Part shown: positions 25,713 through 43,300 of the stretch, in pieces
Layout of the letters: every line of letters starts with the position of its first letter
Numbering within the stretch: position 1 is the first letter of the stretch
From: a virus
Virus record (IMG/VR): IMGVR_UViG_3300028392_000050
Coordinates: 1 to 64,000 of that record
Direction: 5' to 3' (one strand)
Length of the DNA stretch: 64,000 bases
Program-made: the position numbers and the translations under genes
The notes under the pieces: model-generated
The model's input: only the letters and a program-made list of their open reading frames with translations
What the model was told of the DNA's origin: nothing
Database searches by the model: none

Positions 25713-25723
25713 AGGAATAACAG

Positions 25724-27614: not shown

Positions 27615-29053
27615 GAATAGTATATTTGGGTGGCGAAGTACCTAGTAATAGGACTATCCTAGACCACGGCGGAGCTAAGCGAGTTGGCGTTAGTTACTGG
27701 GGCATTGTAAAGCGTGGATTGCCAAAGACTAAAGAGTATTTGCTAGAAAACTACTTTAAAGATGATGTTGAGATATATGTACATCCAGGCATCCCAGCTG
27801 TAGCAGAGCTAACTGAGCAGGAGTTATTTGATTTTTGCGCCGATTATGAAGAGTTTATTCATAATAACCTAAAAAGAATTACCCTTTTTACAGAGGTAGT
27901 CCATCCATCGCTTCCAGATGACTTTATAGCCCAGCAGAGGGCCTCTGCGTGGCACGAAATAGATGAGGCCAAGTTTGGTGTCATCTACCGGTCAGGGAAC
28001 CTTGAGAGCCTTGCTACAAGGTATTTAAATATATTTATACACGGAGATATTGCCGAACCACTATTACCTATGCTTCGTAAGTTTACCTCGCAGCACGGGA
28101 CCAGCTTCCACTTGCTTAACTCTATCAAGCCTGATATGTTCCGTAATTCACCGTTTGAGACAACCAGCACTTTGGCGTGGCTATCTCCTATGATGAGGGG
28201 CGAAACTATTGTCTGGTATGGTAACCAACTACACCGTTACCCAAAGCGTATGAAAGAGCAGGCTAGGTCTAGATACAAGGCTGCCTACGAAGCCGCTAAC
28301 CTAAACTTTGATAAGATACTGGCAGATGACGCTGTGGAAATATCTAAATTAGCAATTTGGTCATACAATCAATTAGAAGAATGGGCACTAAAAACAGGTG
28401 CAGGGCTAGTAACTAGCGCCAGTGCTTCGTCACCCGGTGATTTATCGGAAACACCCTCCTCTGATGTTACTGGTGGGGGGTCTGAACAAGGGAAACTTGT
28501 GACAAGAAATCCCGCTGAAATTCGTACTTTACCTGTGCTTGGTGTTGAAGTTTCACGAGTAATTGAGCAAGACGAAACTGGGCGCGATATCATTAAAGAA
28601 GTGCCTGTGCTTCGCTCTAACAGCACTAGCCTACGTCAGTGTAATACCTGTTTCGTTAAAGACAATTGCCCAGCGTTTAAGGTTGATAACCCTTGTGCGT
28701 TTAACCTACCAGTTGAGGTAAAGACCAAGGAACAACTTAAGGGCTTAATTAACTCACTCCTGGAAATACAAGGGCAACGAGTGGCATTTGCTAAATTTGC
28801 CGAGGATTTAAATGGCGGATATCCTGACCCAAACACAGGTTTAGAGATGGATAGGTTCTTTAAAATGCTTAAAACAATTAAAGAATTAGACGAGTCAAAA
28901 GAGGTTATGCGGGTCACGATGGAACGCGGAAGCTCGGCTGGAGTGCTGTCTAGTTTATTCGGTGAGAGGGCTCAAAAACTAACCGAATTACCTAATAATG
29001 GGCTTAATGAAGAACAGACAAACGAAGTAATTAAGAAAATTACAGACGTTTAG
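27611..29053 (+). CDS. degenerate tRNA-guanine transglycosylase-like domain fused to a Cys4 zinc domain
   Basis: FHLL...PFETTSTLAWLSPMMRG resembles the HxLG...SxDSxxW...G segment of phage TGT-like proteins; CNTC...CP...C downstream. Confidence 0.45.
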   Translation: MRIVYLGGEVPSNRTILDHGGAKRVGVSYWGIVKRGLPKTKEYLLENYFKDDVEIYVHPGIPAVAELTEQELFDFCADYEEFIHNNLKRITLFTEVVHPSLPDDFIAQQRASAWHEIDEAKFGVIYRSGNLESLATRYLNIFIHGDIAEPLLPMLRKFTSQHGTSFHLLNSIKPDMFRNSPFETTSTLAWLSPMMRGETIVWYGNQLHRYPKRMKEQARSRYKAAYEAANLNFDKILADDAVEISKLAIWSYNQLEEWALKTGAGLVTSASASSPGDLSETPSSDVTGGGSEQGKLVTRNPAEIRTLPVLGVEVSRVIEQDETGRDIIKEVPVLRSNSTSLRQCNTCFVKDNCPAFKVDNPCAFNLPVEVKTKEQLKGLINSLLEIQGQRVAFAKFAEDLNGGYPDPNTGLEMDRFFKMLKTIKELDESKEVMRVTMERGSSAGVLSSLFGERAQKLTELPNNGLNEEQTNEVIKKITDV

Positions 29054-29204
29054 GCTAGTTACTAGCCCACCCTATTTTGGCTGATTTAGGCATAGTCTGA
29101 AATCTGCTCAAAATAACACACCCAATCTCAAATTTCTACTCAATCCCGATGAGAGATAATCTATACTAGAACATCTAACCCCCCATAAAAGAATAGGAAA
29201 TGCT

Positions 29205-31238
29205 ATGCCATTATCATTTAAATTAACATCCGACTTTGTAGAAAGTTACAAGACCAAACCAGTTCCTTGGGGGTTTAAAGATGTCGCTGGTAACTCTGTC
29301 GGAGAGATTACCTTTCTAAGAACTTACTCCCGCCTAAAGGCTGACGGAACTAAGGAAACTTGGCTAGATGTATGTGAGCGTGTTATTAACGGTATGTACT
29401 CACTACAGAAAGACCACTGTAAGACTAACCGACTACCTTGGAACGACGCTAAGGCACAGGCTTCTGCTAAGGAAGCATTTGACCGCTTGTTTAACCTGAA
29501 GTGGACTCCGCCTGGCCGAGGCCTGTGGGTAATGGGTACCCCGTTGGTAAATGAGCAAAAGAATAGCGCGGCTTTACAGAATTGCGCATTTGTTTCTACT
29601 AATGAAATGTCTAAAAACAATCCTGCTAAGCCATTTGCGTTCCTTATGGAAGCCTCGATGCTGGGTGTAGGTGTAGGTTTTGACGACAAGGGCGCTGATA
29701 AAGGTTTTGATATTTATGAGCCAAAAGGCGAACAAGTGTACGAAATCCCTGACACACGCGAAGGATGGATGGAAAGTACATCTATGCTAATAAATGCTTA
29801 TTTAAAGCCAGACCAGACAAACTGGGTATTTAATTACGATAATATCCGTCCATATGGCGCACCTATCTCTACCTTCGGAGGAACTGCGGCGGGCCCTGCG
29901 CCACTTGTGAAGCTCCACGAACAAATTAAAAAACTCTTTAATGGCAGGGCTGGAAATAAGGTAACCCGAATTGATATTGCCGATATAGGAAATATGATTG
30001 GTGTCTGCGTCGTTTCCGGAAACGTACGCCGTTCTGCTGAGCTGTTGCTTGGGCGTATTGATGACGATAACTTCTTAAATCTCAAGAACGCTGAGCGTTT
30101 CCCTGAGCGTAACTCTTACGACCCAGAAAATCCAGGTTGGGCTTGGATGTCTAATAACTCTGTAGAAACCTCTGTGGGTACTGACCTCTCACCTATCGTG
30201 GATGGTATTGCTCTCAACGGTGAGCCTGGAGTTATCTGGATGGACGTAACTCGTAAGTATGGACGTTTGGCTGACCAACCTAACAATAAAGACTGGCGTG
30301 CTGCGGGATATAACCCTTGTGCTGAACAATCTCTAGAAAGTTTTGAGTGCTGTACTCTTGTAGAAACCTACCTGAACAGACACGATAGCCTAGAGGACTA
30401 CAAGCGTACTCTTAAGTTTGCTTATCTCTACGCCAAAACCGTTACTCTACTTCCTACTCACTGGGAAGAAACAAATGCCATAATGCAAAGAAACAGACGC
30501 ATTGGTACTTCTATGTCTGGTGTTGCTAATTTTGCGGATCTAAATGGGCTTCCAGAGCTACGTGAGTGGATGGACAAGGGCTACAACACTATCGTTAATT
30601 ACGATAAAGCATATTCCGAGTGGCTTGGAATACGAGAAAGTATTAAAACCACTACTGTAAAGCCTTCTGGTACTGTATCTATTCTCTCTGGCGAAAGCCC
30701 TGGCGTTCACTGGACACCAGGTGGAGAGTACTTCTTGCGTGCCATCCGCTTTGGTAATGATGACCCTATGCTCTCTCTCTTTAAAATGGCTAATTACCGA
30801 GTAGAACCTGCTAGCGAAAACCCTACCAAAACCTCTGTGGTGTTCTTCCCTATCAAATCTCTCGCCAAGCGCTCCGAGAAAGATGTTTCTATCTTTGAGA
30901 AAGTATCTCTCGCTGCGACTGCTCAACGCTACTGGTCAGACAACTCTGTATCTGTAACTATCTCTTTTGATGTTGAGAAAGAAATTAAAGATGTAGGTAC
31001 TGTACTACATATGTACGACGGCCAACTCAAGACAATCTCTTTCTTGCCTATGGGTAACCACGTCTATCCACAAATGCCTTACTCTCAAATCTCTCAAGAA
31101 GAATACGAACAGTACGCTATGGAACTCTTCCCTATTGACTTTAAGGGTATCTATGAGGGTCTGGCTATTGACGCTATCGGTGAGGCTTACTGTACTACTG
31201 ACGCTTGTGAAATCAAACTCATCAAGGACAACCAGTAA
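29205..31238 (+). CDS. nrdJ: class II (adenosylcobalamin-dependent) ribonucleotide reductase
   Basis: RTYSR, PPGRGLW, NCAF, GNVRRSA, NPCAEQ, TVKPSGT, C-terminal CTTDAC; no beta subunit nearby. Confidence 0.93.
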   Translation: MPLSFKLTSDFVESYKTKPVPWGFKDVAGNSVGEITFLRTYSRLKADGTKETWLDVCERVINGMYSLQKDHCKTNRLPWNDAKAQASAKEAFDRLFNLKWTPPGRGLWVMGTPLVNEQKNSAALQNCAFVSTNEMSKNNPAKPFAFLMEASMLGVGVGFDDKGADKGFDIYEPKGEQVYEIPDTREGWMESTSMLINAYLKPDQTNWVFNYDNIRPYGAPISTFGGTAAGPAPLVKLHEQIKKLFNGRAGNKVTRIDIADIGNMIGVCVVSGNVRRSAELLLGRIDDDNFLNLKNAERFPERNSYDPENPGWAWMSNNSVETSVGTDLSPIVDGIALNGEPGVIWMDVTRKYGRLADQPNNKDWRAAGYNPCAEQSLESFECCTLVETYLNRHDSLEDYKRTLKFAYLYAKTVTLLPTHWEETNAIMQRNRRIGTSMSGVANFADLNGLPELREWMDKGYNTIVNYDKAYSEWLGIRESIKTTTVKPSGTVSILSGESPGVHWTPGGEYFLRAIRFGNDDPMLSLFKMANYRVEPASENPTKTSVVFFPIKSLAKRSEKDVSIFEKVSLAATAQRYWSDNSVSVTISFDVEKEIKDVGTVLHMYDGQLKTISFLPMGNHVYPQMPYSQISQEEYEQYAMELFPIDFKGIYEGLAIDAIGEAYCTTDACEIKLIKDNQ

Positions 31239-31239
31239 A

Positions 31240-31260
31240 TCTCTCTCTCTCTCTCTCTCT
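31240..31260. repeat. (CT)10 microsatellite
   Basis: Directly after the nrdJ stop at the strand-switch point. Confidence 0.9.
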
Positions 31261-31375
31261 AAATAGCATTAAAGCCAATAGTTAAATACGACTATGGGCT
31301 TTTTGCTATTTTATCTCTCTCACAATTTATCTCTCCCGCAGCGTACCTGAGCTAAGGTCCAGGGGCTTTGGGAAA

Positions 31376-31403
31376 TAAAAAAGCCCCTATTGCTAGGGGC
31401 TTT
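31376..31403 (-). terminator. intrinsic terminator of the minus-strand block
   Basis: AAAAAAGCCCCTA-TTGC-TAGGGGCTTT. Confidence 0.8.
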
Positions 31404-31420
31404 AATATTTAAATCGCTGT

Positions 31421-31897
31421 TTAATAGTGAAACGCTATTGCCAATGCGAAACCGAAGGTTAATAGCGTCAATGGAGAAAGCCTTATCACTGTCGCACGAG
31501 AGAACTTTATAGTAAAAATTGCTACAAAGACAGACAGCACTGCCAGAATTGGCAAGAACGATAGGGCTACTCCCCAAGAGAACCAGCCGAGTATCATCAT
31601 TAAAGTTGATAGCAATTTAATATCGCCCATACCTAATAGGTCATACTTCACATTTAAGAATAAGCCTAATACAGTAACTCCGATAAAGAATAGAACAGAG
31701 ATACCAAACCTAGCCCACTCACCCTGCCATATGGCTAGGGTCAGCCAACTCAATAAAGTCAGAGCCATTAGGGGCAGAACTATTTTATTAGGAACTCTGC
31801 CGTCTTTCACATCTGATAGCAGGATAGGGATTACAGCACCACCTACATACGCTAGTGGTAATAGGGTTATTAGTAATTGTATTTCGTGTATAGTCAT
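31421..31897 (-). CDS. A24 prepilin peptidase-like membrane protease
   Basis: SDVKDGRVPN and LGMGDIKL aspartate motifs; multiple TM helices. Confidence 0.8.
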   Translation of the reverse strand: MTIHEIQLLITLLPLAYVGGAVIPILLSDVKDGRVPNKIVLPLMALTLLSWLTLAIWQGEWARFGISVLFFIGVTVLGLFLNVKYDLLGMGDIKLLSTLMMILGWFSWGVALSFLPILAVLSVFVAIFTIKFSRATVIRLSPLTLLTFGFALAIAFHY

Positions 31898-31924
31898 TTG
31901 ATTTCCTTATTTATCATCTGGGGT

Positions 31925-32131
31925 TTAGTTACCCTCGTAGTAATCTTTGTGTTCATACTTGCTCTGTGGGTCAAAGATACCACCCTCGCCATTACACTCT
32001 GGGCAGGATACTTCATCAACAGCACCCTCTCCCTCGCAAGCCTCACACTCGTTCCAGCATACAGGGCAACTCTCATCACAGCCACTCTCACTTGTGTAAG
32101 GGCTTTCTAGCCAGCCGTCATAGTCAAACAT
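31925..32131 (-). CDS. small acidic protein with DnaJ-type CxxCxGxG repeats
   Basis: CEACEGEG...CPECNGEG. Confidence 0.65.
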   Translation of the reverse strand: MFDYDGWLESPYTSESGCDESCPVCWNECEACEGEGAVDEVSCPECNGEGGIFDPQSKYEHKDYYEGN

Positions 32132-32615
32132 TAGTTATCTCCTTTATCAAAGTCTAGTAGCACCTCGTAGCACTCTTGGCACTCAACAGCAACATTAGTA
32201 TCGGCATAGGATACAACTTCTATATCGTGTCCTATGTGTCGGCTTAGGTCTTTGTAATCGGTAGCACTCATTTATTCCTCTCCCTCAATTTCTATAACCT
32301 CTGTGTTAGCACTTAGTAAAGTAACTGCGTCTATCTCTACTCCGTCTTGCCACCATCTCTTTTGAGAGAGGTCTAGCAGGTTGCCCCAGTCCTCTCCCTC
32401 TTTAGTATCTATCTCCCAGATTTGGCGTACCTCTACTGTGTATTTAGGCATTAGTTACTCTCCTTTAATTTCTTTAGCATAACTTCGTAGGCATTGTAAG
32501 CACCTTCGGCATAAGCATAATCATAATCTAGGTTATGTTTATCGGCTACTTTCATATCCTTTTTAAACTCTCGCATAGCCTTTTTAATAAACTTGGTTAG
32601 TTCTTTAATTTCCAT
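32131..32615 (-). other. three coupled small ORFs (32131-32271, 32272-32451, 32451-32615) not in the ORF track
   Basis: MSATDYKD... (46 aa), MPKYTVEV... (59 aa), MEIKELTK... (54 aa); stop/start overlaps and GGAG-type RBS. Confidence 0.65.
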
Positions 32616-32857
32616 TAGTTTCGCCAGTCCTCTCCGATAACTCTCATCAAAGCATTAGGGCTAACTTTTAGAACAGAACATAGGGCAGACATAGTTCCAC
32701 TCGGTATCTCTCGCTGTAAATGAAAGTACCTAGACAGACTAGATTTCTGGAAACCTGTTGCTATTGCGAACTGGTTGAGTGATTTGTAGCCGAGTTTCTT
32801 GTATCTGGCTACGAACCATACCCAAGCGATTTCCTTTTGCTTATTAGTTTTTAACAT
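32615..32857 (-). CDS. Cro/CI-type HTH protein
   Basis: YKKLGYKSLNQFAIATGFQKSSLSRYF...LCSVLKVSPNALM. Confidence 0.8.
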   Translation of the reverse strand: MLKTNKQKEIAWVWFVARYKKLGYKSLNQFAIATGFQKSSLSRYFHLQREIPSGTMSALCSVLKVSPNALMRVIGEDWRN

Positions 32858-33227
32858 TTGTTTCCTCTACTTCCTGATTTAAATATTCGCTAAACTGTTT
32901 AACGAAATCTTCCTGTGTGTAATGCGTATTTTCATATTGTACCTCGCCTGTATCGGCATTAACAACGATAGGTGGGTTGTCCTCTGTGTAATCCACAGAA
33001 CTAGCAGAGCCAATACCAAAGCCAGTAGAGCCTTTGTAATTACCCTCTACTATTGCGAACTCATAGAACGCCTGTGCCGTTAGGTAGGTGAAATCACCTA
33101 CTCGTTCTGTCTTGTTTAGCAGGTTGGCTACGGCAACAGCGTTATCTGTGCCTGACCAATGACCATATATCCTAATTATGCTGTCGTCAATTTCGCTAAC
33201 GAGGTAGATAGAACTCCTATCGCCCAT
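32844..33227 (-). CDS. hypothetical phage protein
   Basis: MGDRS...IYGHWSG; AGAAAGG RBS. Confidence 0.7.
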   Translation of the reverse strand: MGDRSSIYLVSEIDDSIIRIYGHWSGTDNAVAVANLLNKTERVGDFTYLTAQAFYEFAIVEGNYKGSTGFGIGSASSVDYTEDNPPIVVNADTGEVQYENTHYTQEDFVKQFSEYLNQEVEETNVKN

Positions 33228-33353
33228 TTGATTTGCCTTTCTTTCCTGATTTATTTGGCTCTGATGTGTAATGTAGCCAGACCATTAGGGCTAGTGTTTC
33301 TAGCCCGAATAGTCCAACTGGCAACAGAACTGCGTAGGTAACTAGCATAGTGT

Positions 33354-35423
33354 CTAGCCCCTAACTTTTCTACTCTTGATTTGATGTTTTACAACATCTC
33401 TAGCAACCTTTACCAATTCGTTAGGATTTTGGATAGTTCTAAAATCGCTAGCGTTGTGTGTGTATTGAGCAAGGCTCTTAGGGTTGGATAAGATTTGCTT
33501 AGCGTAGTCCTCGTCACCGAGCCAGACCACACTTACATAACAGCCTTGCTGTACTAGGTTAGCGATTTTCTGGTCACACACAGCAGAGTTAGACCACTCG
33601 CCGTCTGTAAGAATAAATACTAATTTAGTTTTAGCAGTTGTATTATCCATTATTCGCTTGGTTTCGTTTAGGCTGTCTATCGGGTCAGTACCACCACCAG
33701 CCTCAACTACACGAACGACAGAGGCATTAGCAGGGGTATCTCTGTCGTAGATTTCCTTAGCCCCATAACTAAAGGCAGATACAGACACCTTGCCGTTAAT
33801 GCGTTCTATGCCACGCTTGATAACCCAAGCCGAACGGCAAGCCGAGCCGATAAGTGACCACATAGAGCCAGACTTATCTATCAAGATACTAGCCTCAATG
33901 TCGTACTCGTCGTTGCCCTCTGACCACCTATCAAACAGTCTATCTATCTGGTTGATGTCTGCGTTCATAGCCCTACGAACATTTAACTTGCCACTAGGCT
34001 TTTCTCTATCCCACGCTGGGTCACTTTCTATGCGTAGCAGTTCTAGTTCCTGTGCGAACAGCCTACTAGCAGTCACTTCCGACATCTCTGGGGTAAAGTT
34101 TCTAGCCCTACCTTTCTCTAGGGTAGATTTGCTACTCCTATCCTTTTGGATAGCCTTGAGTGTGTCTATGACCTTACGCTGTAAAGACTTATCTGCCTTA
34201 GCACGATTAACAGCCTCGTTTAATTGCTCAACTACCTCTGACTGTTCGTTGATGAAACCAGCAGTATCAGGATTAACCTCGCCTGTTTCCTTTCCAGCCT
34301 CGTTGCCAGCAGACAGCCCACCGAATAGGTTGTCTGTCTTATCGCCGTCTAGGTCTAGCAAGCCCTCTTGTTCTTTCTCGCCAACTGGTCTGCCGTTTCG
34401 CATAGGGGCTCGGTAGGTACAGCCATTAGGGTTATCAGGTAGGTCTGGCTTGCCGTTCTCGTCTTGAGGCAACAGAGCAATTAGAACTGTGATTAGGTCT
34501 TTGGCTCGGTCATACTGGCGAGGGAATACAAGCGTACGATATTCATTTATGATTTCGTAAATAGCCTGTGCCTTATCAAACCCATATTTAGAAATAAACA
34601 TCTGGGCAGATATCTTGCGTAGTTCCTGTGAGAAATACTTACGCCCAGCCAGCAGGATAAACTGTTCGCCTAATTTCTCGGTCTTGTTCTCTAGCAGGTA
34701 ATCACCCAGCAGGGCTACCATAAATGGTCTTACGCTTGGATACTTGAGTGTTAAGAAATACTCGGCTCGGCAGTCCTCAAGGATATTAAAGACCGAGTTT
34801 CGTCTAGGGTCTGCCAATTCCTCTGTGGTATAGGTGTGGGTTAAATCGTTTCCGTCACTATCCTTACCATACACATAAGACTTGGTTTTAGTAACTTTCT
34901 CGCCTACCCACTTACCCAACGCTGTACCAATGCGAGGTGTAAATAGCAGGTGACCGAGTTCGTGATAGTTAAGACCCTGTAAAGATAGGACTGTGTTTTC
35001 GTCAAGTTCCTTAATCAACTTGCCAGAGAACACGATATCTTTGCCGTCATTGTAGGCAGGGGCTACCTCTGTTTCGCTAACAGACACTAGAACATTTAGA
35101 CCAGTTAAAATCCTGTCGGCTCGTTGATAGACAGACACCACGCTATCTAGCGTGTTGTTGCGAGAGGTGATACCACCACTAGCCCTGTCTTTCTCGCCGT
35201 CTAGGTAGAGGTCATACTCCTCTTGGATTTCCATAGATAAATGTAAGCGTTCGTTATAGATTTCGTTTTCTGTTCTACCAGTTTCTTTGGCAACTCGCTT
35301 AACAGTATCGTCATCTCTAGCCCAGTCTTGGGCTTTGTAGCCGTTTTCATTGAGCCACTCATAGAAACCCTTGCCAACGCTAATGCTTTCTACGGACTGT
35401 CTTGTAATCTTTGGCTTAGGCAT
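33354..35423 (-). CDS. vWA-domain protein with N-terminal HExxH domain (CobT-like)
   Basis: HELGH...NILED; MIDAS DKSGSM, GGT, LTDG. Confidence 0.85.
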   Translation of the reverse strand: MPKPKITRQSVESISVGKGFYEWLNENGYKAQDWARDDDTVKRVAKETGRTENEIYNERLHLSMEIQEEYDLYLDGEKDRASGGITSRNNTLDSVVSVYQRADRILTGLNVLVSVSETEVAPAYNDGKDIVFSGKLIKELDENTVLSLQGLNYHELGHLLFTPRIGTALGKWVGEKVTKTKSYVYGKDSDGNDLTHTYTTEELADPRRNSVFNILEDCRAEYFLTLKYPSVRPFMVALLGDYLLENKTEKLGEQFILLAGRKYFSQELRKISAQMFISKYGFDKAQAIYEIINEYRTLVFPRQYDRAKDLITVLIALLPQDENGKPDLPDNPNGCTYRAPMRNGRPVGEKEQEGLLDLDGDKTDNLFGGLSAGNEAGKETGEVNPDTAGFINEQSEVVEQLNEAVNRAKADKSLQRKVIDTLKAIQKDRSSKSTLEKGRARNFTPEMSEVTASRLFAQELELLRIESDPAWDREKPSGKLNVRRAMNADINQIDRLFDRWSEGNDEYDIEASILIDKSGSMWSLIGSACRSAWVIKRGIERINGKVSVSAFSYGAKEIYDRDTPANASVVRVVEAGGGTDPIDSLNETKRIMDNTTAKTKLVFILTDGEWSNSAVCDQKIANLVQQGCYVSVVWLGDEDYAKQILSNPKSLAQYTHNASDFRTIQNPNELVKVARDVVKHQIKSRKVRG

Positions 35424-36808
35424 TAGTTAGCCACCTCGTCTGCCTCAAGTGAAACATCAACAGCGATACCAAAGCCACTAGCAATACCAGCCTTAGCAGT
35501 ATCAAAGACCAATTTAACAGCCTCTCGTTCATCATCAGAGAACGAGTTTAAATAGGTTTCTGTCGCATACTCAAGGTCTATGTTCTTTACATTTTTAACA
35601 AAAGCCTCAAGACCTCTGGTAGAGATAGGGGTATCTATCTCGCCTCGTTCGTGCTGTTCTCGCAACTGATTAGCAACCTCTAGCAAGGTAGCGTTTCCGA
35701 TAAGTTTTTTCTCAATAGCCTTATCGTAACCAAACTCCCACTTGTGGGCAAACCTATCTTTCCACGCTTGGTTCATTGGGCGAGAGCCACGATAGTTAGG
35801 GTTGTGGTCACCGATAACAACTAGGTCTGGGTGAGCCTTGATTACCTCACCACCATTTTCTAGCAGTTGGATTTCTCGTCTATCGTCTAGCAGACCGAAC
35901 AGAACTGTTGTAACTCGCTCTGGCATAAAATCTATTTCGTTTAATAGCAATACGCCACCATTACGAACTAGGTCTGTAACAGGTCCGTCTTGCCACTTAA
36001 ACACGCCAGCCTGTTCTGTCGGTATCCACATACCGAATAGGTGGCTCGGCTCTAGTCCAATGTTGCTAGAGATGTTGTAGTAGCGATAGCCCCTAGAACT
36101 TGCCCAAGCGATAACACACATAGTCTTACCTGACCCAGCGTGACCTCTGATTAGTAGGTTCTGGTTATTTGCCTTGATGATGTCCAACATCTCAAAGTCC
36201 GTTCTGGTCTTGGTAATTTTGCGATTTAGGTAACGCTTAGCCCAAGAAATATCTGGCACGCTTGCCATTTCCATTTGTGCCTGTGGTCTTGCCATAGTTG
36301 GTACTGGGGCTGGTGTTGTCGGGGCAGTCATTACAGGAACGAAAGCGACAGCCAACTCCTCGTCTGCCTCAACCTCAACTGGGGTAATCGGGTTAATGGT
36401 TACAGGGTTGGTTCTGCGATTATCAGACACATAGTTAGATAGGCTCTGGTCACCAGCGATTAGTCTGTCGGTTAGTTCTGTAATCCAAACCTGATGTGCT
36501 TTGGCATTTTTTTCTGGGTTATACACATAGTCACCAGTAAGGTTGGTAAGCCTACTTGATAGGGCTGTTACATTTCCGTATTTGGCATTAAATACATCTG
36601 TGCTGTTGATAGCAACTGCGACAGGTAGGTTCTGTGCGACAGTCTGGGGCAAGGTAGTTACATCTGTGACCTTGTGCCAAGCCTGACCTCTGCCACGCTG
36701 TCCGTTAGATACTCGGTGAAATACTAAGACCTCACTCTCGGTTGGAACAATTAGGGTCTGTTCCTTTCCGTCTGTTACTGGGGTAGATACCATAAGGGCA
36801 ATACTCAT
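35423..36808 (-). CDS. MoxR/CbbQ/CobS-type AAA+ ATPase
   Basis: GHAGSGKT, WQDGP, LLLNEID, NPNYRG, DRF, ISTR; coupled to the vWA gene. Confidence 0.88.
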   Translation of the reverse strand: MSIALMVSTPVTDGKEQTLIVPTESEVLVFHRVSNGQRGRGQAWHKVTDVTTLPQTVAQNLPVAVAINSTDVFNAKYGNVTALSSRLTNLTGDYVYNPEKNAKAHQVWITELTDRLIAGDQSLSNYVSDNRRTNPVTINPITPVEVEADEELAVAFVPVMTAPTTPAPVPTMARPQAQMEMASVPDISWAKRYLNRKITKTRTDFEMLDIIKANNQNLLIRGHAGSGKTMCVIAWASSRGYRYYNISSNIGLEPSHLFGMWIPTEQAGVFKWQDGPVTDLVRNGGVLLLNEIDFMPERVTTVLFGLLDDRREIQLLENGGEVIKAHPDLVVIGDHNPNYRGSRPMNQAWKDRFAHKWEFGYDKAIEKKLIGNATLLEVANQLREQHERGEIDTPISTRGLEAFVKNVKNIDLEYATETYLNSFSDDEREAVKLVFDTAKAGIASGFGIAVDVSLEADEVAN

Positions 36809-37055
36809 AAGATTTGATACTTTCTGTTAGTTGTGGGGCAGACCTCTTGCCTGACCTCTCTCTCCGAGTTTATGCGATAGGCACGACATTTCCTAGAGCC
36901 ATAAACCTAAATAAGCATTTATTAACCTATTGTTCATCTTTGCCTATAAAGTATCGGCAGCCGATAGAAATTACGGGGCTTTGCTTATTTCTTTGTTTCT
37001 ACCTCATAGAGAGAGAACTAATAGAGAGTAAGGGATAGGTGTAGCCCTAGTGACT

Positions 37056-37093
37056 AACAGGCTAGTAACTAACCAACAGGCTAGTAACTAACC
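37056..37093. repeat. 19-bp perfect tandem repeat x2
   Basis: AACAGGCTAGTAACTAACC twice. Confidence 0.9.
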
Positions 37094-37353
37094 AAGTTCG
37101 CAAGGTAGCCCACATCTGGGCTTACCCCTGCCTCTCTTTCTGTATTGCTAGGCAGTAGCCTAGCCATTACCACAGTTTCGGCTATTTAGCAAGGATTATA
37201 ACGAAATCGTTATAATCTCTCTATTCGGCTCATAGCATACTCTCTCTCTATAGTCAATAGGGTATCTCTCTCTGTTATGAAATCGTTATAACCAAGATTA
37301 ACCGGCCGTTCTCTCTCTGTTAACCAGCTGTTTACTTTGGTGTGGTAAGCGTT

Positions 37354-37447
37354 TTGTTGCGTTGGTAGCCTTTTAGCCTTAACTATGCGATTGAGCGTAG
37401 CGAGCACGCACGGCACGGCTAAGGCTAAAAGGCTACCAACTCAACAA
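37354..37447. repeat. palindromic element 0 (12-mer core flipped)
   Basis: TTGTTGCGTTGGTAGCCTTTTAGCCTTA...TAAGGCTAAAAGGCTACCAACTCAACAA. Confidence 0.9.
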
Positions 37448-37685
37448 TTTCGGGTATGCGAAAGCCCCCAAGCCAGAGAGGGGGCTTGGGGGCTTTGGGC
37501 TGGTCACAGAAAGGGGAAAAAGACCAGCCTATAGCGAGGTGGGACAAATCACCTGCTAATTCTTATGTTTTCCTTGTCTATACCACTTTAGAAAGTCGGT
37601 GGCACAGGTAATACATAGAGCAGTTGGGGCTACAGTTGGGTCTGTAAGTTGTGTTTTACAGACAAAACACTTCTTACCAGTATAA

Positions 37686-38024
37686 CTACCCATTGTTATC
37701 TAGTTTCATCTTACTAGGGTCATAGATACCTAGCAAGGCGAGTAATTCATTAGGGGTCATTAGTAGAGCATAACACAGTTTAGGCAAGAAATACAAAGGC
37801 ATTGTGCCGTTTCCCTTGAGGTAATTGCCTACAGTTCCAGCAGTTACGCCAAAGTTATTACGCCTACAAAAGTCGGCTAGGGACTTATACCCTAGGCTCT
37901 TGTATCTAGCCTCTATTAGTTGTTGCTTACGCTTGCGTTCTTGGGTGTTCCAGTCGTAATAGGCTTGTATTTTCTCATAACGAGTTTCGGCTGGCTCATT
38001 TGGGTCATACTTCGGGTATTCCAT
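37686..38024 (-). CDS. Cro/CI-type HTH protein, paralogue of 32615-32857
   Basis: YKSLGYKSLADFC...GTVGNYLKG...LCYALLMTPNELL. Confidence 0.8.
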   Translation of the reverse strand: MEYPKYDPNEPAETRYEKIQAYYDWNTQERKRKQQLIEARYKSLGYKSLADFCRRNNFGVTAGTVGNYLKGNGTMPLYFLPKLCYALLMTPNELLALLGIYDPSKMKLDNNG

Positions 38025-38132
38025 TATTTACTCCTCATTGTAATTAGTCGTGCTTGTAGTCGGGATAGGGCAATAATGGCTTTACTTAGTAGCCTTATTG
38101 CTATGTGGCGTGGGCTTGGGTTGTATCTGTGC

Positions 38133-38852
38133 TTACTCATTACAGCACTCCAAGTTACAGTAACCACGCAAATCCATACCTAAAGCGTGGGTGATTTCAG
38201 GCTCGTTCTCATAGAACTTATCGCCGTCTAGCCATTGAGCCTCATAAGCAAAGCAGTCGCTTTCGTCAATACTGGACAGGTTTATAGTGATGTCGGGGTA
38301 TTGGCTAGCCAAGTGGTCTAATGCCTCTACTGGTGGTGACCACGCACTTTCTAGGTGATAGGTAATCTCTAGAGAAACTGGCATAGTATCTGGGTCAGTA
38401 TCGCCCATCTCACCTGCGAGAATAGTAGGCATTTCATAGACAATAGAGGCTTCGTCTGTTATCTCCCACTTAGTTCCCCAGTTACGGCAGTTCCAGTTAT
38501 ACCAGTCGTCGCTGGTCTTGCGTTCCTCTAGTATCTTGACGAGAGCCTGATTAGCGTCAAAAGGCGTGCTGGTCTTATCAGCCTTGTCTATCTCTACCAA
38601 GTCAGGGTCAGCCTTTACAATGCTGTCAAAGGCTTTCTTACCCCTCTCTAGGTAGGTATCAAGGTTACTAGGCTTTACTATGTTCCATAGCAAGAATACT
38701 CCCTCAACCTGCTCGGCTGGGGTAGGTTCGCCTTTCCAGTTAGTTTCTCCAGCCCAAGGTGTAGTATAAGGCTTAGCAAGCCTATCCTTTATTGCCATTA
38801 CTGTATCGTAGTCACCAACGATAGTGACTTTACTGCTAGCCCAATTCGGCAT
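38133..38852 (-). CDS. DUF1281/YubB-like ferredoxin-fold protein
   Basis: MPNW start, WYNWNCRNWGTKW, SAWSPP motifs. Confidence 0.75.
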   Translation of the reverse strand: MPNWASSKVTIVGDYDTVMAIKDRLAKPYTTPWAGETNWKGEPTPAEQVEGVFLLWNIVKPSNLDTYLERGKKAFDSIVKADPDLVEIDKADKTSTPFDANQALVKILEERKTSDDWYNWNCRNWGTKWEITDEASIVYEMPTILAGEMGDTDPDTMPVSLEITYHLESAWSPPVEALDHLASQYPDITINLSSIDESDCFAYEAQWLDGDKFYENEPEITHALGMDLRGYCNLECCNE

Positions 38853-38959
38853 TAGTCGTTCTCCTCAATACAAGTGTGGTTATTCCAGTCTTGTTCGGCT
38901 GTGTCAGAATAGTTATCCACTATAAATCCACAATGGTTACATTTAGTCCAGCGTGCCAT
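38852..38959 (-). CDS. 35-aa Cys/His peptide (not in ORF track)
   Basis: MARWTKCNHCG...HTCIEEND; TAATG coupling on both sides. Confidence 0.6.
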   Translation of the reverse strand: MARWTKCNHCGFIVDNYSDTAEQDWNNHTCIEEND

Positions 38960-39210
38960 TAGTCGTTCTCCTCTTTCTGTTTGATAAGGAACTCTAGGTC
39001 ATCAGCAAGTTCATACCCAGTCTGGGTGAACTCAATGTGACCTGATAGTGTTTGCTGTGCCTCTCCAATGAACTCTGACCATACTCTCTCTACATCTGCT
39101 CTATCTAAGCCTGTATCTACAAAGTAGGTCTTGTCCCAATACTCCACAATGATTTCATCATCTAGAGCATTGTCTTTTAGTATCTGTGCGATTAGGTCTT
39201 TTACCTTCAT
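38959..39210 (-). CDS. small acidic protein
   Basis: AGAAAGG RBS; first gene of its unit. Confidence 0.7.
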   Translation of the reverse strand: MKVKDLIAQILKDNALDDEIIVEYWDKTYFVDTGLDRADVERVWSEFIGEAQQTLSGHIEFTQTGYELADDLEFLIKQKEEND

Positions 39211-39289
39211 CTCTCAATTCCTTTCTGTGAATTGTAATACGAGTTTATACCTATCTCTCTCTAAATAGCAACTCTCCTGCGTGTATTCC

Positions 39290-39319
39290 AGGTAAACATT
39301 AGATGAACAACAGGTGAAC
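39290..39319 (-). promoter_or_regulatory. 11-bp-pitch GTTCACCT-type boxes
   Basis: AGGTAAAC-att-AGATGAAC-aac-AGGTGAAC on +. Confidence 0.8.
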
Positions 39320-39326
39320 AGCCCTG

Positions 39327-39401
39327 CCAACTCAACAATTTAGCCATTTAGCCATCCGACGATCCGGAGAAGATGGCTAAATGGCTAAATTGTTGAGTTG
39401 G
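39327..39401. repeat. palindromic element 1
   Basis: CCAACTCAACAATTTAGCCATTTAGCCATC-loop-GATGGCTAAATGGCTAAATTGTTGAGTTGG. Confidence 0.95.
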
Positions 39402-39512
39402 GAAAGCCCCCTAGCGTGATGAATGAAACGCTAGGGGGCTTTTATGCCAGAGAACCAGTCTGGCTTGGGTTGAGGGGCTGGGCTGGGAGAACCAGCCCCT
39501 CAAGTCTGTTGG

Positions 39513-40073
39513 TTAGTCTACCTCTACCTCTGTGTCGGAAATGTCAAATCCGTAACCAGCCTCGTCAAGGTCGCTGTTGGTAACGGTAGCTTCGGCTGTA
39601 ATGTTTAGGTCGCTCTCAATGTCGTCCCAGTCATAACCTCTAGGGGCTGTTACCTCTAGTGAGCCAGTAATGGTAATGTTTACTGTCTTAGTGACTTCTG
39701 CCTCAATGTCAAAGATTTCGCATAGTTCGTCACGAACTTCCTCGTCAATGTCGTTCCAGTTGTCGTCAAGAAATGTCTCAAGTTTGGTGACTTTCCTGAT
39801 TAGTTCCTGCCACTTCACATACCACTCTTGCTTTTCGGTTTCTAAGCTTTTTAGGTTTTTGTGTAGGTGAGTGAGTTCGTGGCGAATAGTTACCTTGTCG
39901 CCCCCAGTTACCCAGCCGTTATCTATGTAGCCATAGAACTTTACTTCTAGGTCTAAGACATCTGCTAGTGGCTTTACTGGTGTTGTTGCTAGTTCGGTCA
40001 GACCTGCCTCTGCGAGTTTTTCCTCAACAGTTAGTTCTGGCTTTGGTTCTTGGTTCTCTTGGTTCTCATACAT
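39513..40073 (-). CDS. acidic hypothetical protein
   Basis: Start moved to MYENQE after AGAAAGAGAG RBS; D/E-rich C-terminal half. Confidence 0.75.
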   Translation of the reverse strand: MYENQENQEPKPELTVEEKLAEAGLTELATTPVKPLADVLDLEVKFYGYIDNGWVTGGDKVTIRHELTHLHKNLKSLETEKQEWYVKWQELIRKVTKLETFLDDNWNDIDEEVRDELCEIFDIEAEVTKTVNITITGSLEVTAPRGYDWDDIESDLNITAEATVTNSDLDEAGYGFDISDTEVEVD

Positions 40074-40153
40074 AGTAATCTCTCTTTCTGTAGGTTGTGT
40101 ATTGCTATGTATTACTATTATGGCAGTTGGGGGTGGCAAAACCCAAATCCTAG

Positions 40154-40194
40154 AGGCAAACTCTAAGTAAAGCTTTTGTGAACAACAGGTAAAC
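40154..40194 (-). promoter_or_regulatory. four 11-bp-pitch boxes
   Basis: AGGCAAAC, AAGTAAAG, TTGTGAAC, AGGTAAAC at 40154/40165/40176/40187. Confidence 0.75.
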
Positions 40195-40201
40195 GGATCT
40201 C

Positions 40202-40268
40202 CCAACTCAACAAAGCCCAAAGCCCGATCTTTATTAGGGGCTTCGGGCTTTGGGCTTTGTTGAGTTGG
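40202..40268. repeat. palindromic element 2
   Basis: CCAACTCAACAAAGCCCAAAGCCCGA-loop-TCGGGCTTTGGGCTTTGTTGAGTTGG. Confidence 0.95.
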
Positions 40269-40352
40269 CACGAAAAAACCCCCCAGCGAGAACCTTGGGA
40301 GTTCGCTGGGGGGCTGGTATTATCGGGCTAGACACCAACACACCCGATAAGT

Positions 40353-40703
40353 CTAACTAGGCTGGTGAGCCTCTGGCTCTACCTCTACCCACTCGCCGTC
40401 TATGAACTGTTTTTCGTTCACTAACTCACTAATAGCCCCTGAGTATAGGTCATAGTAAAAGGCGTATAAATCAACCTTTTGTAAATCCTCTATTGTTTCG
40501 GCACTGTCATAGCCAAACTCTTTCCACCTGTTTTGATACTCAAAGTCTAGGCTAGCCCAGTCTAATTGAATGTTAGCCGTATAAACTGGAACTGCTCCGT
40601 CGGCGTATTCGTGAGCGATGTCCTCGGGATAAGGTCGCCCTAAAATCCACTCTCGGTTATCCCAGATTTCTTGGTTGATTTCTGTTTCTGTCCAAAGTGC
40701 CAT
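40353..40703 (-). CDS. Ocr (T7 gp0.3)-like DNA mimic, copy 1
   Basis: 116 aa, acidic; EDIAHEYADGAVPVYTANI aligns with the recalled Ocr segment DAIHMAADNAVPHYYADI. Confidence 0.65.
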   Translation of the reverse strand: MALWTETEINQEIWDNREWILGRPYPEDIAHEYADGAVPVYTANIQLDWASLDFEYQNRWKEFGYDSAETIEDLQKVDLYAFYYDLYSGAISELVNEKQFIDGEWVEVEPEAHQPS

Positions 40704-40729
40704 TTGCTGGTTCTCTCTTTCTGTTTGGT

Positions 40730-40819
40730 GTAGCCCCTTTGGCTACTCTCTTATACTAATGCCACCTAATGACTTATTAGGTAGCGAGCTGATGAATGTC
40801 AGGTTAATATTAGGTAAAC
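40730..40819 (-). promoter_or_regulatory. cassette promoter: four boxes, -10 TAGTAT, 5' hairpin
   Basis: Boxes at 40779/40790/40801/40812; minus strand GCTACCT-N20-TAGTAT-AAGAGA-GTAGCCAAAGGGGCTAC. Confidence 0.75.
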
Positions 40820-40826
40820 GGATCAA

Positions 40827-40903
40827 GCCAACTCAACAAAAGCCATTTAGCCAACCCTCTTATCTAGTGGGTGTTATGGCTAAATGGCTTTTGTTGAGTT
40901 GGC
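40827..40903. repeat. palindromic element 3
   Basis: GCCAACTCAACAAAAGCCATTTAGCCA-loop-TGGCTAAATGGCTTTTGTTGAGTTGGC. Confidence 0.95.
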
Positions 40904-40951
40904 AAAAACCCCCTAGCAAGTCAGGTTGCTAGGGGGCTGGTCTTTGCCGGT

Positions 40952-41317
40952 TTATCCGTAAGTCAGTTCACCGAAAATCGCATACTGGATAACCATATCG
41001 CCAAAGCAAGCGTCAGCGTCCTCAATGTCTAGGGAGTAAGTGCCACAGTGCTTCTGCCCTGCGTTTAGAGCCAACTGGTATCCCTTTGCTAGTTGCGCTA
41101 GCGTAACGGTGTGCCACTTGTCTTCTTCCTCGTCATACAACTTAAAGTCCTGTGGGTTAGGCTCGTAGTCTGGCAAGTGCCAAAGGCTAATCTTGCTACC
41201 ATCAGGCTTACGGATTTTACTCGCCCAGTAGGTAATACCTGCGCCATCACAGCCCCAGATACCTTCCCACAAATCATCAAGCGAAACCTCTACGCTTACA
41301 GTGATTACCTCGCTCAT
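40952..41317 (-). CDS. acidic hypothetical phage protein
   Basis: GITYWA...DADACFGDMVIQYAIFGELTYG. Confidence 0.75.
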   Translation of the reverse strand: MSEVITVSVEVSLDDLWEGIWGCDGAGITYWASKIRKPDGSKISLWHLPDYEPNPQDFKLYDEEEDKWHTVTLAQLAKGYQLALNAGQKHCGTYSLDIEDADACFGDMVIQYAIFGELTYG

Positions 41318-41424
41318 TAGTATCCTGCCTTTTCTAGAATAGCAAGCACAGTATCTACCTGCTCGTCGGTTAGTTTCTCTATTGCTTCGGTGTTGATTAC
41401 ACTCTCGCCGAATAGATTTTCCAT
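41317..41424 (-). CDS. 35-aa acidic peptide (not in ORF track)
   Basis: MENLFGESVINTEAIEKLTDEQVDTVLAILEKAGY; AGAAAGAGAGAACC RBS. Confidence 0.7.
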   Translation of the reverse strand: MENLFGESVINTEAIEKLTDEQVDTVLAILEKAGY

Positions 41425-41444
41425 TGGTTCTCTCTTTCTTTTAG

Positions 41445-41533
41445 GTAGCCCTTTTGGCTACATACTCACTCTATACCACAGGCGACCAGACAAGGTAGCC
41501 GGTGAGTAAATGGCAAATGAACGTTAGGTGAAC
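41445..41533 (-). promoter_or_regulatory. cassette promoter
   Basis: Boxes at 41493/41504/41515/41526; GCTACCT-N19-TAGAGT; GTAGCCAAAAGGGCTAC hairpin. Confidence 0.75.
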
Positions 41534-41539
41534 AAAGCA

Positions 41540-41614
41540 GCCAACTCAACAAATAGCCAACAGCCATACATCCGATCAGGATTAGTATGGCTGTTGGCTA
41601 TTTGTTGAGTTGGC
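41540..41614. repeat. palindromic element 4
   Basis: GCCAACTCAACAAATAGCCAACAGCCATAC-loop-GTATGGCTGTTGGCTATTTGTTGAGTTGGC. Confidence 0.95.
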
Positions 41615-41682
41615 ATAAAAAAGCCCCAGAGCGAAAGGGGGGTCGCTCTGGGGCTGTGGTTAGAGTAGGGAAATGAGAGAAC

Positions 41683-41937
41683 CTACTCTAAGTTTGTTTC
41701 GTTGTTTAGTATGTAAAGCACATACAAAGTTTCTGTTTTTTCTGTATGAACAAAAGTATACTTAGGAAACTTTCTGCGTAAATAAGTTATTTCGGTTCGC
41801 TTTACAGGGTTATTGTAAATAGCCCATTGGTTCGGGTGTTTTGTAAGTTCTGTTAGAAACGGCTCAATGTTTCTAATAGTGCTTCCTGCTCTGCCTTTTT
41901 TTGGAACTAGGCTTTCGTCAATAAACTTGATTTCCAT
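41683..41937 (-). CDS. hypothetical protein
   Basis: GAGGAGG RBS; coupled. Confidence 0.65.
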   Translation of the reverse strand: MEIKFIDESLVPKKGRAGSTIRNIEPFLTELTKHPNQWAIYNNPVKRTEITYLRRKFPKYTFVHTEKTETLYVLYILNNETNLE

Positions 41938-42131
41938 TAGTTTTCCTCCTCATTTTCGCCAAAGGCTTCTCTGGCTTCTTCCATTAGACCCATAGCATCT
42001 CGTAACGCTTGGTCTAGGCTGGTGAAACCCTGTATCCTAATCGGCTCAATAGGTTCTAAGCCTTTGTAGTCGTTACAGGTTGGGCATACTGCTTGCTCGG
42101 TGTGTGTTCCGTCAAATACACAAACGCTCAT
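41937..42131 (-). CDS. small zinc-binding acidic protein
   Basis: C...CPTCNDYKG; coupled. Confidence 0.65.
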   Translation of the reverse strand: MSVCVFDGTHTEQAVCPTCNDYKGLEPIEPIRIQGFTSLDQALRDAMGLMEEAREAFGENEEEN

Positions 42132-42409
42132 TAGTTCTCCTCATCCTCGATAATGGTGTTATTGGTGTTGTCTGGCTCGTCGTGAGGTTCGCCACACTCA
42201 TCACATTTTTCTTCACGACACTCAAAGCAAGAGCCGTCTAGGTCTAGTTCTCGTTCGCAACCTCCACAGACCTCTTCGAAGTCGATAGACTCGGTGCCAG
42301 AGTAGTAAGAGTTCAGGTCAGACAAAAACGCCTTCTCTGCCTCTTCTTGTGTGTTGCCTTCTACTACACCCTCGTATTCATAGAGGGCTTTGATTTTGTA
42401 AAATGCCAT
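42131..42409 (-). CDS. acidic Cys-rich protein
   Basis: Start moved to MAFYKI after AAAGAGAGAACC RBS; CGGC, CFEC, CDEC. Confidence 0.7.
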   Translation of the reverse strand: MAFYKIKALYEYEGVVEGNTQEEAEKAFLSDLNSYYSGTESIDFEEVCGGCERELDLDGSCFECREEKCDECGEPHDEPDNTNNTIIEDEEN

Positions 42410-42436
42410 TTGGTTCTCTCTTTCGTTTCTCATTTA

Positions 42437-42525
42437 TGTAGCCTTTTGACTACTCTCTAATACTAGGGTATAGGGCACGCCCACAGGTAGCCGTCAGGTA
42501 AAAGCCAGATGAACAACAGATGAAC
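42437..42525 (-). promoter_or_regulatory. cassette promoter
   Basis: Boxes at 42485/42496/42507/42518; GCTACCT-N19-TAGTAT-TAGAGA-GTAGTCAAAAGGCTAC. Confidence 0.75.
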
Positions 42526-42533
42526 AGATCGCC

Positions 42534-42600
42534 CCAACTCAACAAACAACAGCCAGCCAGCTTTTATATAGCTTTGGCTGGCTGTTGTTTGTTGAGTTGG
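42534..42600. repeat. palindromic element 5
   Basis: CCAACTCAACAAACAACAGCCAGCCA-loop-TGGCTGGCTGTTGTTTGTTGAGTTGG. Confidence 0.95.
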
Positions 42601-42681
42601 CAAGAAAAAGCCCCCCTGCTCCTAGATTTAGCAGGGGGGCGGTGTTGGCGAGGGGATGAATGGAAACCTCACCAAGTCTAT

Positions 42682-43050
42682 TTAGTCCTCGCCGAAGAAC
42701 TCCTCGGCTGTGAGGGTGTGAGAGCGTTGAGTTTCTTTGATACGCTCCTGCTCATCACGCTCCTTAACTAACGCCTCAATTTCGGTGTAATAGTGTTCTT
42801 GGTAATAAATCCAGAGGTCAAGGTGCATTAGGGTATAAATGCTGTCTGGCAGAGTGTCGGTCATTTCATTAAACCTATTTAGATACTCAGTAGGTAATGA
42901 GCGCCACTCGTCTAGGATTTCACTGTGCCACACTGGCACGCCACTATCGGCGTATTCACCTGCCAAGTCTTGTGGATAAGTCTGCTCCAATAGGTATTCT
43001 TTATCAGCTAAGATTTCTGCCTTAAACTGCTCTGGTGTATAAAGTGCCAT
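42682..43050 (-). CDS. Ocr-like DNA mimic, copy 2
   Basis: 122 aa, acidic; QDLAGEYADSGVPVWHSEI; clear paralogue of 40353-40703. Confidence 0.6.
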   Translation of the reverse strand: MALYTPEQFKAEILADKEYLLEQTYPQDLAGEYADSGVPVWHSEILDEWRSLPTEYLNRFNEMTDTLPDSIYTLMHLDLWIYYQEHYYTEIEALVKERDEQERIKETQRSHTLTAEEFFGED

Positions 43051-43075
43051 TTTGTAGTTCTCTTTCTCTCAATTT

Positions 43076-43165
43076 GTAGCCCCTTTGACTACTCTCTAAC
43101 TCTACACCCCTAGGGGGACTTACTAGGTAGCGACGAGGTGAATGTCAAATGAACAGCAAGTGAAC
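43076..43165 (-). promoter_or_regulatory. cassette promoter
   Basis: Boxes at 43125/43136/43147/43158; GCTACCT-N20-TAGAGT-TAGAGA-GTAGTCAAAGGGGCTAC. Confidence 0.75.
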
Positions 43166-43173
43166 AGATCGCT

Positions 43174-43243: not shown

Positions 43244-43300
43244 CATAAGAAAACTCCCCTGCCAGTTTCGGCAGGGGAGTCCTTTTCTTGAGAGAGAAAC

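Follow-up and report, generated by a model that had tools for sequence, protein, structure and literature searches.

Restriction falling mainly on first-entering phage DNA is known for one type of site in T5 and for one type I motif in marine podoviruses. In T5, EcoRI sites are cleaved only in the first-step-transfer DNA, as given in the accessible part of the source (10.1101/866236). In Murciavirus, the type I motif restricts only in the first-injected region, and the authors propose sub-genomic restriction in the available portion of their paper (PMC12455610). Avoidance over the whole genome was reported by Rusinov et al. 2018, in an article accessible in part, mainly for orthodox type II sites and with complete or near-complete elimination (PMC6286503). 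Here we analyse a stretch of 64,000 nucleotides (the window), the first 64 kb of IMG/VR virus record IMGVR_UViG_3300028392_000050, a viral contig of 87,293 bp with a 114-bp overlap between its ends. The genome carries plus-strand replication genes at 0-31.2 kb and plus-strand packaging and structural genes at 47.4-87 kb, separated by its sole large minus-strand block at 31.4-46.9 kb, which holds about 30 leftward genes, all on one strand. A zone of about 15.6 kb, 18% of the genome, coincides with this block and is strongly depleted in short palindromes and many other words. We propose, with a probability of roughly 0.6, that the zone is early-exposed, first-entering DNA purged of many host restriction words, as in T5 or T7. 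New here is that the same logic seems to remove dozens of specificities from 15.6 kb, and that the removed sets differ between close relatives.

Comparison with described systems

The block resembles the first-step (pre-early) DNA of T5 in being a probably terminal block of small early-type genes, as judged from the AY692264 feature table and the accessible part of 10.1101/866236. Restriction words are strongly depleted in the block and present in the rest of the genome here, and the EcoRI sites of T5 matter, in that same part of the source, only in first-step DNA. However, the 9.7-kb T5 region has normal or raised numbers of 4-bp palindromes (GCGC 54 against 6.9 by the rate of the rest). An earlier sequence-only reading of this DNA had cited T5 first-entering DNA as a site-poor precedent; the T5 counts show no such purge of 4-bp palindromes, and the analogy is conceptual only. 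A tblastn search with 12 T5 pre-early proteins (dmp, A1 and A2 among the homologues sought) gave a best E value of 0.048 and nothing below 0.5 in the zone. The T5-type DnaA-box cluster was not found at 31-47 kb, where TTWTNCACA occurs twice (36519 and 42971) and unclustered, and where other repeat arrays exist.

The leading region of T7-like phages and Murciavirus shares with the block a set of co-oriented early genes ending at a terminator, and the first-injected region of Murciavirus, described in the available text as variable and thought to carry anti-defence genes, is likened to the block (PMC12455610). The genome end next to the co-oriented block genes is placed here only by colinearity with Streptomyces phage BRock. 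The differences are that Murciavirus, a podovirus group, involves one type I motif in the accessible portion of that paper (PMC12455610), whereas at least 25 type II-like words are lost from 15.6 kb here, and that the present phage, unlike T7-like podoviruses, is BRock-like, with structural genes matching BRock, which has an annotated tail sheath. Genome-wide avoidance also differs, since only GATC and TCGA are low throughout this genome and the other words are normal outside the zone. In T4-type phages, hyperplastic regions consist of small early ORFs (open reading frames) flanked by a repeated promoter and stem-loop element, and the cassettes vary by strain. The block likewise has repeats and hairpins between small ORFs, and patchy homology and alternative joints in contigs suggest that cassettes may be exchanged; however, the sequences are unrelated, and the stems here are 26-30 bp and perfect. 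A full-text literature search, outside which most subscription journals lie, returned no paper on a multi-site regional purge.

Depletion of the core beyond codon usage

The core of the zone (R1, 31351-39360) was examined for the ten tetramers AGCT, GGCC, CCGG, GCGC, CGCG, TGCA, CATG, ACGT, TCGA and GATC. It contains three sites, CCGG at 37302, GGCC at 37304 and AGCT at 37326, all in one non-coding spacer. They leave site-free gaps of 5952 bp (31350 to 37302) and 2035 bp (37326 to 39361), whereas the longest gap anywhere else in the window does not exceed 756 bp. If R1 had the site density found elsewhere in the genome, it would contain about 177 sites. Permutation of synonymous codons within each gene (500 shuffles), preserving the proteins and the per-gene codon usage, gave an expectation of 160.2 ± 10.1 sites with a minimum of 128, and codons redrawn according to the usage outside this stretch gave 174.9 ± 11.5, both nulls being approximate because the gene list is a greedy ORF call. 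Therefore, amino-acid and codon usage are not the cause, and the depletion is selective rather than compositional. Two control stretches held 194 sites against 236 expected and 187 against 243, a deficit falling mostly on GATC, TCGA and AGCT, words that are low genome-wide.

Other palindromes persist in the core: CTAG (64), TTAA (38), AATT (29) and TATA (22) are at normal levels, and 15 ATAT and 10 GTAC are also present. The sequence-only reading had described about 8 kb (31354-39360) as almost free of the ten tetramers in two site-free stretches, with these six palindromes remaining, and the computed counts agree on each point (3 sites against 160 ± 10; gaps and residual words as above). Among the findings that could undo it, it had named depletion due to amino-acid and codon usage alone, and that explanation fails under the codon-preserving null. 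Its statement that all words but GATC are frequent elsewhere holds for most of them; TCGA is also rare outside the zone, with 56 occurrences in 71 kb, next to 16 of GATC.

Extent and edges of the zone

Observed-to-expected ratios were computed per kb for eight tetramers (GATC and TCGA, the only two under-represented genome-wide, were excluded). Every bin from 32 to 37 kb and the one at 38-39 kb has a ratio of 0, and those at 31 and 37 kb have 0.23-0.24. From 39 to 47 kb it lies at 0.19-0.45. This partially purged zone (R2, 39361-47000), formed by about 14 small early-type gene cassettes between repeated boundary elements, holds 54 sites of the ten tetramers against 140 ± 8 under the codon-shuffle null. 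The avoidance had been said to fade beyond about 41 kb; instead, it steps to a partial level at 39.36 kb, which is held until an abrupt end at about 47.0 kb, where the ratio rises from 0.22 at 46-47 kb to 1.06 at 47-48 kb. The upstream edge falls in a divergent non-coding region (46942-47373) in which the site density is normal again; this region contains six AGRTRAAC repeats (46963-47063) and two TATAAT sites that resemble promoters of the rightward genes.

The opposite edge is different in shape. The last AGCT (31350) lies just beyond an intrinsic-terminator-like hairpin with a T run on the minus strand (31373-31410; 10 pairs plus TTTATTT at 31403-31380), which marks the downstream end of the block. 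Beyond it, a graded shoulder over the convergent plus-strand replication-module genes (25000-31350; the TGT-like gene, ribonucleotide reductase and upstream genes) shows ratios of 0.61, 0.78, 0.82, 0.42, 0.70 and 0.48 per kb at 25-31 kb and about 1 beyond, a feature absent from the sequence-only reading. The asymmetric edges, abrupt upstream and graded downstream, fit polar, time-dependent exposure, as expected. Outside 25-47 kb, the eight tetramers range between about 0.7 and 1.25 in nearly all kb bins, the exceptions being the bins at 7 kb (0.41), 62 kb (0.50), 76 kb (1.51) and 81 kb (1.46). Most of the 7-8 kb bin is filled by a gene for a 505-residue PA14-domain protein (6681-8198, minus strand) in a small minus-strand cluster.

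Purged words

The purge reaches well beyond the palindromes as which it had been framed: the palindromes are indeed gone, but many non-palindromic and degenerate words are purged too. CCGC and GCGG are absent from R1, against 46 at the rate of the rest of the genome. By the same rate, the observed and expected numbers are 0 and 16.6 for GANTC, 1 and 36 for GCNGC, 2 and 20 for CCNGG, 2 and 15 for GGNCC, 0 and 12 for GGNNCC, 0 and 21 for TTSAA, 1 and 24 for GAAGA, 0 and 16 for GCATC, 1 and 11 for GGATG, 3 and 15.5 for CCATC, and 0 and 7 for RAATTY. In an unbiased scan, 15 strand-specific tetramers fell at least 5-fold below the codon-shuffle null, namely the ten palindromes, CCGC, GCGG, GAAG, GGAG and GACG. 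Among pentamers free of the purged tetramers, ACCGT, CATCG, CTCAG, GAGAC, CGACC and others are zero in both orientations. At least 25 separate words have been removed from the zone.

Both orientations of the asymmetric words are gone. Against the null, CCGC was found 0 times with 9.2 expected and GCGG 0 with 8.8; CTCAG 0 with 6.2 and CTGAG 0 with 7.0; GAGAC 0 with 3.4 and GTCTC 0 with 7.0. Since a word and its complement are lost equally, recognition of duplex DNA and not of a transcript is indicated, which points to a purge acting on duplex DNA. We take most of the purged words to be recognition sequences of type II or IIS enzymes, presumably those of AluI, HaeIII, HpaII, HhaI, TaqI, MboI, NlaIII and AciI and, in addition, of HinfI, Fnu4HI, ScrFI, Sau96I, MboII, SfaNI and FokI.

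Conservation and switching in related contigs

A search of IMG/VR with two proteins of the block, a von Willebrand factor A (VWA)-like protein (9 loci) and an AAA ATPase (22 loci), yielded together 23 contigs, 22 of which hold both genes; the remaining one, L017, is a fragment with the last 159 VWA residues only. The ATPases of the relatives are 96 to 48% identical to that of the present phage. All 22 relatives keep the site-poor zone next to replication genes of normal site density, so that the depletion was reproduced on related genomes, with lineage-specific word sets. The 4-7 kb graded shoulder past the terminator also occurs in three relatives (G001, G002 and G003), and the abrupt edge at the strand switch in G006 and G007.

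Words were counted in the ATPase and VWA genes (3480 nt) of 23 sequences including this phage. AGCT, CCGG, GCATC, CCATC, GCNGC and CCNGG are absent from 23 of 23, GGCC and CGCG occur at most once in every sequence, and TGCA, GATC, GAAGA and GGATG are absent from 22 of 23. Other words vary by lineage. CATG is absent from 11 sequences and occurs 8-20 times in the other 12, GCGC occurs 0-1 times in 13 and up to 31 times elsewhere, and ACGT is absent from 20 and present 16-17 times in three; TCGA, GTAC, ATAT, CCGC, GANTC and TTSAA are likewise absent or frequent. Some losses are private to a few lineages (CCTC is zero only in L034, AATT only in L034 and L040, and GTNAC is 0-1 in L038, L041 and L042). 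On an ATPase tree, 17 variable words require at least 41 state changes (CATG 7, CCGC 6, GTAC 4, GANTC 4), in a quick, short search with one protein and 20 distinct sequences in which recombination could inflate the number. Since the relatives share 72-77% nucleotide identity, zeros cannot persist by descent. Zeros that are kept, together with words that switch on and off, indicate ongoing, regional and lineage-specific selection. R1 is 91% identical to L009, and R2 shows patchy 70-82% matches to it.

Phage identity and genome ends

Identity to the proteins of Streptomyces phage BRock (Borockvirus) is 54% for the large terminase, 69% for the major capsid protein and 54% for the portal. Matches to BRock were found for 39 of 145 ORFs, in perfect inverse colinearity, none of them from the block. 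At the equivalent place BRock carries gp1-27, small genes on the strand opposite to the rest and reading inward, which start 0.9 kb from the left physical end in a record with a 221-bp terminal repeat. The two phages thus share a colinear genome and the placement of an opposite-strand small-gene block; they differ in that no block gene is common to both and that palindrome depletion is missing in BRock. By this colinearity, the genome would end at or just beyond the upstream edge of the block, at 47.0-48.3 kb. Cultured phages gave no megablast match to the zone or to a replication stretch.

A WhiB gene scores above the Pfam cut-off, and the matching public runs are labelled freshwater metagenomes, five of them holding at least half of the sampled words; together these suggest a freshwater actinobacterial host. 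An attempt to reach the host through relatives of the ribonucleotide reductase failed, as its 7 matches (L051-L057) lie in metagenome-assembled genomes of seven unrelated taxa. They include an 85-kb contig labelled Bifidobacterium and are likely phage contigs mis-binned as bacterial.

The public runs were read as assembled contigs. Exact-match contigs of run X1, possibly the source sample, show depths of 49-56 at 30.8-36.6 kb, 104-123 at 36976-47896 and 52.7 from 48107, contig depth not being equal to copy number and the edges of the step differing in runs X2 and X4. The step at 36976-47896 hints at an 11-kb terminal repeat or, equally, at a block common to two similarly abundant strains; a second strain is present in X1 at a depth of 56-78. 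Many related contigs end in the cassette region: 14 of 22 reach no further than 1.6 kb upstream of the ATPase gene, 10 of these no further than 730 bp (L010-L043), and five begin at one position of a CNNAACAA motif there. This pile-up was rejected as unproven evidence of physical termini. The near-complete relatives G005-G007 break in the cassette region yet run through the junction equivalent to 47 kb, and because the contig ends are spread across repeated motifs, mosaicism of strains in that region explains them better. Joints near 48100 were also rejected as a terminus, the graph branching there being accounted for by a 41-nt invariant block. This block (about 48097-48137) is unchanged in the present phage and four relatives, third codon positions included, and sits in a small conserved ORF upstream of an HNH endonuclease gene; it may be cis-acting, for example as a packaging signal. 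For a 690-residue protein near the junction, the 5 relatives found are too few to show a pile-up of ends.

Non-coding DNA of the block

The cassettes of R2 are separated by ten boundary hairpins (39328-46231), one per cassette, in which a conserved base CCAACTCAACAA is paired with TTGTTGAGTTGG. The upper stems vary between copies with their complementarity kept, 7 of 10 being perfect stems of 26-30 bp, and within the 87-kb genome the motif is limited to 39328-46231. AGRTRAAC repeats lie before each hairpin, and several hairpins are followed by a GC-rich terminator-like hairpin. The spacing of the AGRTRAAC repeats is about 11 bp and about 33 bp, and they could be promoter or regulator sites or iterons. 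An Rfam search of 30-49 kb returned sub-threshold microRNA-type matches to long hairpins only, and the window has no tRNA genes. The ten boundary elements make up about 16% of the length of R2 and contain 27 of its 54 residual sites, including 9 of 14 GATC and 10 of 16 AGCT. Within 39361-46571, GATC, which is so scarce outside the zone, recurs in five hairpin loops and just 5' of four, which suggests a function of this word at cassette borders.

The three residual sites of R1 lie in the non-coding spacer upstream of the ATPase gene (36809-37555). Also in this spacer are a palindromic TTATAACGAAATCGTTATAA, in which TATAAT reads on either strand, and a hairpin that is imperfect and has 35-nt arms (37354-37447). 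Non-coding regulatory DNA is therefore less purged than the genes, yet even the spacers hold fewer sites than the genome at large. In both the block and its relatives, (CT)n/(GA)n tracts like TCTCTCTCTC lie in spacers and beside gene starts, for instance at 31240-31260.

Proposed mechanism and alternatives

Based on these results, we propose that the block is already inside the cell, exposed and required, at a time when protection against restriction is not yet in place. The genome would most likely enter end-first from near 47 kb and move leftward, in a slow or staged manner, either with transcription-coupled transfer as far as the terminator, like T7, or with a halt, like T5. The early proteins, many of them very acidic, might then neutralise restriction and shield the DNA that enters later. 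Sites would be lethal in the block, progressively less harmful over the next 4-7 kb and harmless beyond, and the shoulder would represent DNA that follows while protection builds. Because a cut anywhere kills the phage, there is a gain from purging 18% of the genome only when the remainder is safe during that period. We infer restriction enzymes as the agent, and likewise the position of the genome ends, the direction of entry and a protective early function. The staged-exposure part of the sequence-only reading is upheld insofar as a selective, conserved depletion of duplex DNA sits on an early-type block, and is weakened in that the Ocr-like protein it foresaw was not found. The broad host range it had added is not required, as many restriction systems across the strains of one host population suffice.

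Several observations weigh against this proposal. Searches of the block with Pfam, PHROGs and NCBIfam found no Ocr-, ArdA-, SAM-hydrolase- or T5 A1/A2-like protein. BRock shows no palindrome depletion anywhere. The circular-looking assembly with its 114-bp overlap does not show the genome ends or the order of entry. If entry starts at 47 kb, R2 enters first and is nonetheless less purged than R1, for which the one explanation we offer is the fast turnover of R2 cassettes, seen in their patchy matches to L009. All three R1 sites are non-coding, a leniency that a simple model does not predict, and so are half of the residual sites of R2, where a cut should be equally lethal. The genome also encodes two adenine methyltransferases, one CcrM-like and one of the phage N6A type (4233-4982 and 11575-12024, the latter being the N6-adenine type), and a TGT/DpdA-like protein (27611-29053) recognised by a match to PHROG 887 only, with no Pfam match. 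Given these genes, the virion DNA may be modified; if they protected it, avoiding their target words would be unnecessary.

The same modification genes are among the points in favour of an account which we regard as unlikely, namely that the whole genome enters at once and only early-transcribed DNA is accessible to restriction enzymes, the zone marking early transcription and the rest being temporarily sheltered by co-injected proteins, by condensation or by virion modification. The zone coincides precisely with a transcription block, from promoter region to intrinsic terminator, and the shoulder could be read-through. However, a candidate shielding protein is missing, modification enzymes act genome-wide and would protect the block too, and we are aware of no case in which the access of type II enzymes depends on transcription, which counts against this account. 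Even lower odds are given to an inherited signature, in which a mobile module passing between phages and hosts brought its site-poor composition along and no regional selection acts at present. The R2 cassettes are mosaic, with alternative joints and loose ends in four runs, 10 of 22 related contigs break no more than 730 bp from the ATPase gene on its upstream side, and the doubled depth at 36976-47896 in X1 could be a block common to two strains. Yet the purge is strongest in the most conserved part (the ATPase and VWA genes) and weakest in the mobile R2, and zeros that persist where synonymous sites are saturated (48-77% protein identity), together with at least 41 switches, require present selection in place.

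The leniency towards non-coding sites bears on a further possibility, whose chance we put lower again: selection might guard each early gene unit rather than the whole molecule, cuts in spacers being tolerated and re-joined. In this view each cassette would carry a promoter and a terminator of its own; another version is that a doomed genome, by being expressed, would help co-infecting kin. The residual sites are mostly non-coding (3 of 3 in R1; 27 of 54 in about 16% of the length of R2), and the BASEL paper, in its accessible part, proposes that ligation contributes to the resistance of T5 (PMC8594841). On the other hand, the spacers are still depleted against the genome, no repair function was identified in the block, and the boundary elements are repeated functional sequences whose sites can be explained by constraint or gene conversion. 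That the avoided words are those cut by nucleases with which the phage degrades host DNA, active while only the block is inside, is very improbable; this idea, raised by Davison for T5 A1, is in print (10.1101/866236, accessible in part). HNH and other nuclease genes are present in the genome, but no nuclease domain was found in the block, and at least 25 words with independent switching between close relatives exceed what a few phage nucleases would target.

If our proposal of early-exposed, first-entering DNA holds, staged or slow genome entry would be widespread among uncultured phages, composition alone would suffice to recognise the ends and early regions of phage genomes from metagenomes, and the restriction systems that a phage lineage meets in nature could be inferred in a testable way. 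A more specific picture, possible though on balance doubtful, is that an uncultured freshwater clade related to BRock, probably infecting Actinobacteria, takes its genome in polarly and slowly, with the first 18% as a restriction-proof landing strip. In that case, the purged-word list of each lineage would be a direct record of the restriction specificities of uncultured hosts, so that host restriction repertoires could be read from viral metagenomes; the 4-7 kb shoulder would measure the build-up of protection relative to DNA entry, and the regional avoidance would be far more complete than in T5 or T7-like phages.

Genes of the block

The AAA+ ATPase used as the conserved marker for finding relatives is of the MoxR/CobS type (AAA_5; 35423-36808, minus strand). 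Its partner gene encodes a 689-residue protein with a C-terminal VWA-like domain that scores below the Pfam cut-off (33354-35423, minus strand). The rest of the block comprises a small helix-turn-helix protein and about 25 small ORFs without a family, apart from the two genes described below; no phage RNA polymerase was detected in the block. An isoelectric point below 4.7 is predicted for 15 of 30 block proteins, compared with 18 of 108 elsewhere. A very acidic member is a 239-residue DUF1281_C protein with a net charge of -26 (38133-38852, minus strand); further acidic members are encoded at 39513-40271 and 43301-43879. In some atlas clusters DUF1281_C is fused to the polyvalent-protein domain LPD28, which is a lead and not a function. 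The last gene of the block (31421-31897, minus strand) encodes a 158-residue membrane protein with a Peptidase_A24 (prepilin-peptidase) domain, scoring 31.6 bits against a cut-off of 26.5, and a prepilin-peptidase homologue is unusual phage cargo.

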